From assembly GCA_017536505.1 (NCBI GenBank), contig JAFXHG010000038.1, forward strand, positions 129,163 to 193,162: a stretch of 64,000 bases of DNA. The letters run 5' to 3'. This DNA comes from Bacilli bacterium. GTDB taxonomy: Bacteria > Bacillota_I > Bacilli_A > RF39 > UBA660. Shown piece after piece: positions 3,048-21,169 of the stretch (the stretch's first letter is position 1; each line of letters starts with the position of its first letter). The translations under genes and the position numbers were made by a program. The notes beneath the pieces were generated by a model. The model was not told where the DNA came from. It ran no database searches and saw nothing but the letters and a program-made list of their open reading frames with translations.

Positions 3048-3704
3048 TTATTTACTAACTAAATTTACAAAACTAGTAGGTATATCTATATCTATAATCA
3101 TATTTTCTTTTGTTTTAGGATGAATAAACTCTAAAGTATTCGCAATTAAAGCCATCCTTCTTATTGGATCTTTTTTTATACCATATTTTTTATCACCAAC
3201 AATAGGATTACCCATATCAGCAAGTTGTACTCTTATTTGATTCTTTCTACCTGTTTTTAAAGTTAAGCTAAGCATAGTATACTGTTTATTTTCAAGTATT
3301 TTTTCATATTCAGTGATAGCAAGTTTACCATTTTTATCATTAACACTATAAGTTAAATGAGTCTTAGTTTCTTGTAAATAACTTTTTATAATACCTTTTT
3401 GTTTTTTTACCTTACCATTTACTATAGCAACATAATTTCTTTTAAATTTATCCCAATTATCTTGAAGATAGAATTTAGTTTTTTCATCTTTAGCAAACAT
3501 AACAATACCACTAGTGTCTTTATCAAGTCTATGTACTATAAAAACCTTATTATTTTTATTTTTTTGTTTTAAATAATCAAATACATAACTATATAAAGTT
3601 CTATCTTTTTCTTTTTCAGTAGCTACTGTAAGTAAATTAGAGGGTTTATTTACTATTATAATAAATTTATCTTCATATAAGATGTCTAACTTTTTCTTTT
3701 TCAT
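3048..3704 (-). CDS. RluA-family pseudouridine synthase (no S4 domain)
   Basis: HRLDKDTSGIVMFAKD catalytic-Asp motif, 218 aa. ATGA start/stop overlap with the upstream gene. Confidence 0.85.
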   Translation of the reverse strand: MKKKKLDILYEDKFIIIVNKPSNLLTVATEKEKDRTLYSYVFDYLKQKNKNNKVFIVHRLDKDTSGIVMFAKDEKTKFYLQDNWDKFKRNYVAIVNGKVKKQKGIIKSYLQETKTHLTYSVNDKNGKLAITEYEKILENKQYTMLSLTLKTGRKNQIRVQLADMGNPIVGDKKYGIKKDPIRRMALIANTLEFIHPKTKENMIIDIDIPTSFVNLVSK

Positions 3705-18747: not shown

Positions 18748-19053
18748 TTAATAGTACATTGAAGATTCTAATGATTCTACTGCAGAACCAATAGCTGCTA
18801 ATGCACAAAGTCCACAAGCAAATAATAGTCCACATAAAACTGTACCAATAATTCCTAATACTAATCCAGCAGTAGCCATACCTTTTTTAGCTTCAATTTT
18901 ACGACCTTTAACAGCTAAAACAATTGCAACTACACCACAGATTAATCCAATTAAAGCTAACCAAACTCCACAGAATGAGAATACACAAGAAATAATTCCT
19001 AATACTAATGAAGCAACAGCCATAGGATTTTTTTGTTGTACATTGTTTTCCAT
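18748..19053 (-). CDS. Small Gly/Ala-rich membrane protein (DUF4190-like)
   Basis: 101 aa with two pairs of hydrophobic helices (ASLVLGIISCVF..., GLVLGIIGTVLCG...). G+C is locally higher. Confidence 0.55.
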   Translation of the reverse strand: MENNVQQKNPMAVASLVLGIISCVFSFCGVWLALIGLICGVVAIVLAVKGRKIEAKKGMATAGLVLGIIGTVLCGLLFACGLCALAAIGSAVESLESSMYY

Positions 19054-19130: not shown

Positions 19131-20135
19131 TTATTTTTCTAATAAATGTAAATTATCTAAAAGTATTCCAGTTCCTTCTACTACACAAGTAAGTGGACTT
19201 TCTGCAACAAATACAGGTACTTTTAACTCATGAGAAAGTAAATTGTCAAACCCATGTATTAATGCTCCCCCACCTGTTATAATTATTCCTTTATCTATTA
19301 TATCTGCTGCAAGTTCTGGCGGAGTTTGTTCAAGGACATTTTTAGCAGAATGGATAATTGTATATACGCTTTCTCTCAATGCTTCTTCGACTTCTTCACT
19401 ACACAAAGTTATAGTATGTGGAAGTCCTGTTACTAAATCTCTACCTTTAACTTCCATCTTATCGTTTCTACCTTCTGGATAAACAGATCCTATTTCTAAT
19501 TTTATCTCTTCAGCAGTTCTATCCCCAATTAATAATTTATATTTATCTTTAATATATTTAATTATATCATTATCAAATGTGTTTCCAGCTACTTTAATAG
19601 ATTCACTTGTAACAATATCACCTAAAGAAAGTATTGCTATATCAGTAGTACCTCACCCAATATCTATAACCATATTTCCACTTGGCCTAGAAATATCAAG
19701 TCCAGCACCTATAGCAGCTACTTTAGGTTCTTCTTCTAAGAATACTTTTCTAGCACCTGTTCGTTCTGCTGCTTCTTTTATAGCATTCTTCTCTACTTGA
19801 GTTATATTAGAAGGACAACAAATAAGTATTCTAGGTCTAGATAAAAAACTTTTACCATTTATTTTTCTAATAAAACTATTAAGCATCATTTCTGTTACTT
19901 CAAAATCAGCTATTACTCCATCTTTCATAGGTCTTATAGCCAGTACCTTACCTGGAGTTCTACCTAACATTTCTCTTGCTTGTGTTCCTACTGCTAGTAT
20001 TTTTTTTGTATCAGAATCAATTGCTACTATGCTAGGTTCATTTAAAACAATGCCTTGACCCTTAATATAAATTAATACATTAGCTGTACCTAAATCTATA
20101 CCTATATCTTTAGCAAACATATTATCATCCTCCAA
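19131..20135 (-). pseudogene. mbl: mreB/mbl-type actin homologue interrupted by a single in-frame TGA (19653-19655)
   Basis: The two track ORFs (160 aa and 108 aa) plus the untranslated gap form one continuous 334-codon MreB frame. My translation across the gap reads [79 protein letters not shown]. The stop replaces a Gly of the conserved DIGGGTT phosphate-2 motif. Confidence 0.8.
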
Positions 20136-20174: not shown

Positions 20175-20426
20175 TTAAACTAAGTTTTTATACTTTTTTT
20201 TAGTGGATTCTCCTCCTCTTATATGTCTTACATCTATATGATACTTTAAAATGCTATCTATTTGTTCAAAAAGCTTGTAATCTACATCAACTAATCTTTC
20301 ATGTAAGTCTTTATGTACAGTACTCTTTGATACATTAAATATTTTAGCAATTTCTCTTATAGTTTTTTTAGTATCTAACATATAGTTGGCTTCATCTATT
20401 ACTCTTTTGATAATCAATGAATTCAT
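20175..20426 (-). CDS. spoIIID: Stage III sporulation protein D (mother-cell transcription factor)
   Basis: 83 aa. IREIAKIFNVSKSTVHKDLHERL HTH. Conserved position upstream of mbl. Confidence 0.9.
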   Translation of the reverse strand: MNSLIIKRVIDEANYMLDTKKTIREIAKIFNVSKSTVHKDLHERLVDVDYKLFEQIDSILKYHIDVRHIRGGESTKKKYKNLV

Positions 20427-20489: not shown

Positions 20490-21116
20490 CTATAATTCAT
20501 TAACTTTTTTATCATAATAATTTTCTGGATTAACACATATTCCATCTATTATTAATTCAAAATATAAATGATTTCCCAACTCAGTTGATATGTTTGATGT
20601 TGAACTTTTAGCTATTACTTGACCGCCAACTACAGTGTCGTTTGCTTTAATGCTTATTTCTCCTACACTTTGATAAACACTAGTAATACCATTTTCATGT
20701 TCTATCGTAATAACGTTTCCTAGTGTTGTATCTTCCTTAACTTCTTTTACAGTACCATCTAATATTGATACAACATCAAAAACATCACCTTTTGAATATG
20801 ATACTCCACTACTTGGCATATATGTTCCCTCATAATAAATTAATGATTTTTCTTGTGTTTCTGCTTCTGCTTGATAATCATAGAAGTTTTTTGATAAAGT
20901 TACTTCTGTATCAACATAAGGTCTTATAATTTTTACCTCTGTATTAACTACTGGCACTTTTTCCTCATAATCAAGTATTCCCTTAGAAACATAACTTATT
21001 TCCGAGTCGTTCACATCTTTAGCAGCAAATCCTAATACTACAATTCCACCTACTAATAATGTAAAAGATAAAGCATAAAGTCCATAAACAACTGATTTTT
21101 TTAATTGTCTTTTCAT
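20490..21116 (-). CDS. Membrane-anchored degenerate LytM/M23-domain protein (SpoIIQ-like)
   Basis: Start moved to ATG 21114-21116 (GAGGTG upstream). N-terminal TM. The LytM domain ends in GNHLYFELIIDG, where canonical HxH is reduced to H-L-Y. Sits between spoIID and spoIIID. Confidence 0.55.
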   Translation of the reverse strand: MKRQLKKSVVYGLYALSFTLLVGGIVVLGFAAKDVNDSEISYVSKGILDYEEKVPVVNTEVKIIRPYVDTEVTLSKNFYDYQAEAETQEKSLIYYEGTYMPSSGVSYSKGDVFDVVSILDGTVKEVKEDTTLGNVITIEHENGITSVYQSVGEISIKANDTVVGGQVIAKSSTSNISTELGNHLYFELIIDGICVNPENYYDKKVNEL

Positions 21117-21169
21117 TTCATTCACCTCATTTTTAAGTGTGAACAAAATATTTATTTTTATACTATTTT

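Follow-up and report, generated by a model that had tools for sequence, protein, structure and literature searches.

The only mreB gene of this gut bacterium carries an in-frame TGA in place of a conserved glycine codon, and this TGA is a single-base difference seen in one assembly only. The stop is neither conserved nor programmed, and nothing compensates for it. We consider it most probable (roughly 60%) that the TGA reflects an error in the consensus or a minority allele picked by the assembler; the species has a normal mreB gene, and neither recoding nor selenocysteine nor a new genetic code is involved. The window, that is the whole stretch of 64,000 nucleotides that was analyzed, corresponds to C36:129163-193162 of an assembly of 1.19 Mb in 38 contigs with a GC content of 25.2% and a completeness of 90%. 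Caution is advisable in the use of this assembly, as annotation pipelines will call this core gene a pseudogene, which could wrongly suggest a species without MreB.

A single mreB gene with one internal stop codon

Translation of the minus-strand frame between positions 19131 and 20135 bore out the preliminary description of an mreB/mbl homologue with one in-frame TGA at a glycine of the DIGGGTT motif, while its start had to be moved. The codon at 20135, previously taken for an ATG, is TTG; the real start is the ATG at 20120–20118, located 8 nt after a GGAGG motif, and gene calls on contigs of the same strain begin their 329-aa product at this very ATG. The former numbering of the TGA as codon 161 holds when counted from the TTG, and becomes codon 156 when counted from the real start. 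The terminal TAA occupies positions 19131–19133, and the length of 329 codons is the same as in all relatives (Table 1). When the TGA was read as glycine, residues 1–328 scored 490 bits with the NCBIfam model NF010539 for MreB (cut-off 293) and 462 bits with TIGR00904 (cut-off 365.75), which are full-length matches above the curated cut-offs for the MreB/Mbl family of actin-like ATPases. The score with the NCBIfam MreBH model was below its cut-off, and the set of family models used for the product included none specific to Mbl. Among solved structures, Geobacillus MreB (7ZPT, 402 bits) is the best match; it aligns end to end and places DIGGGTT on DIGGGTT. The glycine loop binds the nucleotide phosphates in the actin/Hsp70/MreB fold. 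In the window, the phosphate-2 loop with the pattern DxGGGT is interrupted (DIG-stop-GTT); in other assemblies of the same strain it reads DIGGGTT.

The gene lies in the sequence FemAB, MurJ/SpoVB-like protein, RpiB, DUF1146, SpoIID, Peptidase_M23, SpoIIID and MreB, followed by DUF4190 and Lgt. The spoIIID-mbl arrangement recognized earlier is well founded, as contigs from the same strain and from relatives also give SpoIID, Peptidase_M23, SpoIIID and MreB_Mbl in that order. Bacillus subtilis resembles the present case in having spoIID ... spoIIID-mreB/mbl on one strand, and its Mbl is likewise an MreB-family actin-like ATPase with a DIGGGTT phosphate-2 loop. B. subtilis has three paralogues, MreB, Mbl and MreBH, whereas the 1.19-Mb genome studied here and those of its congeners have one. 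A count of paralogues in the whole genome returned a single MreB, the remaining actin-fold matches being DnaK (613 aa) and FtsA (420 aa). Since mreB is present in single copy, no paralogue compensates for the stop, and the suggestion that other mreB paralogues might do so had to be abandoned.

Table 1. Features of the mreB region and of other loci considered in the text. Positions without a contig name refer to the window.
Feature	Position	Strand	Basis or remark
mreB/mbl CDS, 329 codons + TAA, one internal TGA	19131..20120	-	family models, direct reading
In-frame TGA, codon 156, middle Gly of phosphate-2 loop DIGGGTT	19653..19655	-	direct reading
Shine-Dalgarno GGAGG, 8 nt before ATG 20120	20129..20133	-	direct reading
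spoIIID, 83 aa, immediately upstream of mreB	20175..20426	-	exact product on same-strain contigs, Pfam PF12116 SpoIIID
Peptidase_M23 (SpoIIQ-like) ORF	20490..21146	-	208-aa product called in same-strain contigs
spoIID, 304 aa	21170..22084	-	PF08486
DUF4190 small membrane protein, downstream of mreB	18748..19053	-	
tRNA-Trp(CCA), split over two contig ends	C9:14188-14225 and C25:54949-54993	+ and -	
tRNA-Trp(CCA) of the related genome G020	C5:6416-6489	-	
Metallo-beta-lactamase-fold gene	C38:8270-8330		apparent frameshift at A10 run
Fic-domain gene	C20:9625-9690		apparent frameshift vs G020
299-aa kinase-like gene	C23:14745-14805		apparent frameshift vs G020
Repeat copies at contig ends	C28:1-425, C3:10699-11106, C30:1-333, C2:116530-116858		
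Internal repeat copy	C23:24540-25090		

The same strain carries an intact mreB gene in other assemblies

A protein look-up retrieved six contigs that encode exactly the intact MreB protein, and three of these were compared with the window base by base. The 390-kb scaffold ENA ERZ28654013 (SAMN15830035) differs at one of 20,990 bases and the Logan contig from SRR31077498 at one of 12,681 bases, in both cases at the first base of codon 156; over 11,158 bases of the Logan contig from SRR12529276 there is the mismatch at the same base and one more at that contig's own end. All three read GGG GGA GGT and encode an intact MreB of 329 aa. An exact look-up with the SpoIIID product also led to an SRR12529276 contig, on which a stretch of 5,995 bases matches the window but for the first base of codon 156. 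The proposal that GGA had become TGA by a one-base change is thereby established: a single G-to-T exchange within a run of five G converts GGG GGA GGT into GGG TGA GGT. The altered base is plus-strand position 19655 (C36:148817 of the genome), which is A on the plus strand and T on the coding strand. A dinucleotide swap of TG to GT or a paired homopolymer error (GGT GGA to GGG TGA), an idea prompted by the sequence of the nearest species, was rejected, as the same-strain contigs read GGG GGA.

Agreement with these other assemblies extends beyond the mreB region. Elsewhere in the genome, no differences from SRR12529276 were found in 10,836 and in 12,330 bases, and a single difference from SAMN15830035 was found in 22,469 bases, a synonymous CTA/TTA (C/T) change in cotH. 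The strain in a second sample, SAMN15830010, is slightly divergent, at about 5 differences per 22 kb. The same-strain contigs derive from samples of the study coded XIEF21-1. Near-identical sequence, with 0–1 differences per 4–13 kb, is present under three run accessions, namely SRR31077498, SRR32129085 and SRR12529276 (loci L178, L181 and L184 from the first two compared with L179, L183 and L186 from the last), which points either to a widespread clone or to repeated sequencing of the same material.

Several searches were directed at the TGA allele itself. Exact look-ups of the truncated mreB products returned no record, in a collection whose coverage possibly does not extend to the records of the window's own genome. 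A 50-nt species-specific pattern of the TGA allele had no match in the JGI metagenomes, and a degenerate DIG-TGA-GTT pattern had one match only among JGI metagenome contigs, in an unrelated sequence of 55% GC. An exact look-up with the UvrB product was without a match.

mreB is strongly conserved among congeneric species

The relatives are represented by metagenome-assembled genomes from animal and human guts. An uninterrupted single copy of mreB is present in 23 of the 24 other congeneric genomes. The exception, G016 (92% complete), gave no MreB match, its best hit being DnaK, and either an assembly gap or a real loss within the genus would account for this. MreB is also absent from many neighboring lineages and families of the class. 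All 19 congeneric genes that were inspected have GGN at codon 156, and among the 20 congeneric genes the stop is the only residue unique to the genome studied here. Within mreB, the three nearest species share 88–90% nucleotide identity and 98–99% amino acid identity with it; the comparison yields 84–99 synonymous codon differences and, besides the stop, 4–9 non-synonymous ones, all conservative. As these non-synonymous changes are so few and the stop is the sole unique residue, mreB must have been under strong purifying selection until essentially the present. The features of a decaying pseudogene, i.e., an excess of non-synonymous changes, further stops or frameshifts, were absent from the gene. 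Conservation of the stop across strains and species, as expected for programmed read-through or recoding, was likewise absent (0 of 19 congeneric genes and 0 of 3 same-strain assemblies).

TGA is an ordinary stop codon in this genome

That TGA is a genuine stop elsewhere had been concluded from the ORF ends at 3701, 4923, 22739 and 32802; all four are indeed TGA on the minus strand, and the statement holds genome-wide. Of about 1,000 long ORFs, 121 (12.1%) terminate with TGA, compared with 11.1% in the related genome G020, and there is no excess of ORF pairs in the same frame with only one TGA between them (6 of 79). ORFs from the whole G020 genome also served as probes for the quality of the assembly. 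About 590 ORFs of at least 150 aa are shared with G020 at 60% identity and 80% coverage or more, and mreB alone among the long, high-identity genes contains an internal stop; the remaining flagged cases were low-complexity regions, spurious 5′ extensions or antisense shadow ORFs. Release factor 2 is encoded by prfB (479 bits, curated cut-off 370). The gene (C27:2768-3790, minus strand) is one open frame of 350 aa that covers positions 13 to 352 of the family model, so that the programmed +1 frameshift site (CUU UGA C) found in many bacterial prfB genes seems to be missing.

Reassignment of TGA throughout the genome, whether according to code 4, used by the related Mycoplasmatales, or to code 25 with TGA as glycine, has next to no probability. 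It would fit with the occurrence of code-4 lineages in the class, with in-frame TGA codons in the MreB-search matches of the relatives G035 and G040, and with the position of the TGA at a glycine, but it is already refuted by the normal share of TGA among the stops of long ORFs, by the lack of a second in-frame TGA across the conserved ORFs, by the presence of prfB and by a single tRNA-Trp with the anticodon CCA. The likeness to Mycoplasmatales (code 4) and Gracilibacteria/SR1 (code 25), consisting of a UGA in a coding frame, a small low-GC Bacilli genome and a glycine position, ends there; the signs of translation table 4 or 25, namely loss of RF2, a tRNA(UCA), many in-frame TGA codons and disuse of TGA as a stop, were all absent. 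Selenocysteine finds no better basis. No SelB was found above the cut-off (the best match, a general translational GTPase, reached 186 bits, the cut-off being 242), and tRNA-Sec and a tRNA with the anticodon UCA were found neither in this genome nor in G020. A SECIS hairpin just after the UGA is likewise missing, the 91 nt around and after the TGA folding no better than shuffled sequences (z = +0.9), and the relatives have Gly, not Cys, at codon 156. Code 4, code 25 and selenocysteine are excluded.

Bypass of the stop in favor of a useful full-length protein is highly improbable. It could be envisaged as read-through by tRNA-Trp(CCA), as a hop of tRNA-Gly from GGG over UGA to GGU, or as recoding to Gly or Sec. 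Certain features are in keeping with such events: the base after the UGA is G, which is the least common at position +4 of the genuine TGA stops in this genome (9 of 121); the UGA stands between two glycine codons (GGG UGA GGU), as a short hop would require; and the A27-C43 mismatch in tRNA-Trp(CCA) is of a type reported to promote UGA read-through (PMC13092985). Against this stand the lack of conservation of the TGA even within the strain, the lack of SelB, tRNA-Sec, tRNA(UCA) and a downstream structure, and the presence of RF2 together with normal use of TGA as a stop. Moreover, judged from the known actin/Hsp70/MreB fold, none of the routes would be expected to restore the glycine loop: the residue inserted by read-through would most plausibly be Trp, and a hop would leave the protein one residue short, so that the phosphate-binding segment would be altered in both cases. 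The tRNA-Trp mismatch does not rescue the mreB case. A +1 frameshift at GGG UGA was considered as well and rejected because it meets a TAG after five codons, and a suppressor tRNA was ruled out as no tRNA(UCA) was found. A study on in-frame stops in prokaryotic genes proposes that they are read through and argues from the evolutionary conservation of the stop (PMC7918605). The cases in that study resemble ours in that an in-frame stop occurs in an otherwise functional-looking gene; they differ in that their stop is conserved, whereas here it is absent from the same strain elsewhere and from all relatives.

Assembly artefact, minority allele or recent null allele

Of the four explanations offered in the preliminary description, two survive, namely an error in the sequencing or the consensus and an inactivating mutation of very recent date; low-level read-through and site-specific recoding do not, given GGA in three otherwise identical assemblies and TGA in no other assembly or relative. 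The case has the hallmarks of an ordinary nonsense single-nucleotide variant or consensus error in a metagenome-assembled genome, i.e., a single-base change from GGA to TGA that is private, in a gene that is otherwise undecayed and has an intact allele in otherwise identical DNA. No feature sets it apart from such cases, and it is notable only in that the sole copy of a highly conserved gene is affected.

Most likely, the T is an artefact or a minor allele and not the majority allele of the sampled population. This is favored because three otherwise identical assemblies have G, and because an error is blind to gene function, whereas a nonsense allele in the majority must escape strong selection. 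The normal allele of the strain encodes Gly156 in an intact, single-copy and strongly conserved MreB; on this reading, the assembler would have taken an artefactual or minority T into the consensus, and the organism would make an ordinary full-length MreB with nothing special at codon 156. What speaks against an artefact is that the assembly is otherwise clean, with contigs of up to 195 kb; this suggests adequate coverage, and random errors in the consensus seldom occur under such conditions. An error-prone long-read assembly was ruled out, as there were only about three frameshift candidates and no other internal stop among the about 590 conserved ORFs.

The good contiguity of the assembly lends some weight to a real null allele of very recent origin, in which the only mreB gene has acquired a G-to-T nonsense mutation and which is carried by the dominant clone of the gut population sampled. 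This possibility appears rather unlikely. It would yield a fragment of 155 residues without half of the ATPase fold, and MreB-guided wall elongation would be lost. About 2 differences in 43 kb separate the genome from the SAMN15830035 clone. One of them, the synonymous SNP in cotH, looks genuine, which implies that real SNPs exist between the clones and that the mreB change could be another. At this rate, a few tens of real SNPs would be expected genome-wide, of which about one might be a nonsense mutation if selection had little time. Furthermore, the absence of MreB from many families of the class and the failure to find it in the congener G016 suggest that its loss can be tolerated, peptidoglycan has been lost repeatedly in neighboring orders (PMC10868615), and three accessory genes of this genome look frameshifted. 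On the other hand, mreB is a single-copy gene on which purifying selection is very strong in each of the 23 congeneric species that possess it, the intact allele lies in otherwise identical DNA of three other assemblies, the T occurs in no second assembly, and no other conserved gene is disrupted. Were the T nevertheless real and dominant, which we regard as doubtful, we would be looking at a natural MreB-null clone of a spore-forming gut bacterium with a reduced genome. Such a clone would illustrate, on a small scale, how MreB can disappear in nature from a lineage that tends towards wall reduction, and it may stand at the first step of a process in which the neighboring Mycoplasma-related orders have repeatedly given up rod shape and wall guidance.

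Further observations on the genome

The only tRNA-Trp of the genome has the anticodon CCA and an A27-C43 mismatch atop the anticodon stem, which leaves a stem of 4 bp. The tRNA-Trp gene was read in 29 other genomes of the family (loci L187-L216), and 15 of these share the mismatch, which is retained with either state of pair 28-42 (C-G or U-A). A paper from 2026 links tRNA-Trp with such a mismatch to UGA read-through (PMC13092985). Although the Mycoplasmatales, to which the family is related, use code 4, the family itself retains RF2 and TGA as a stop.

The accessory genes that look frameshifted in comparison with G020 number about three (Table 1) and may be real pseudogenes or reflect indel errors. 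Finally, a repeated element of approximately 0.4–0.8 kb, with 97–99% identity between copies, evidently breaks the assembly at several contig ends.
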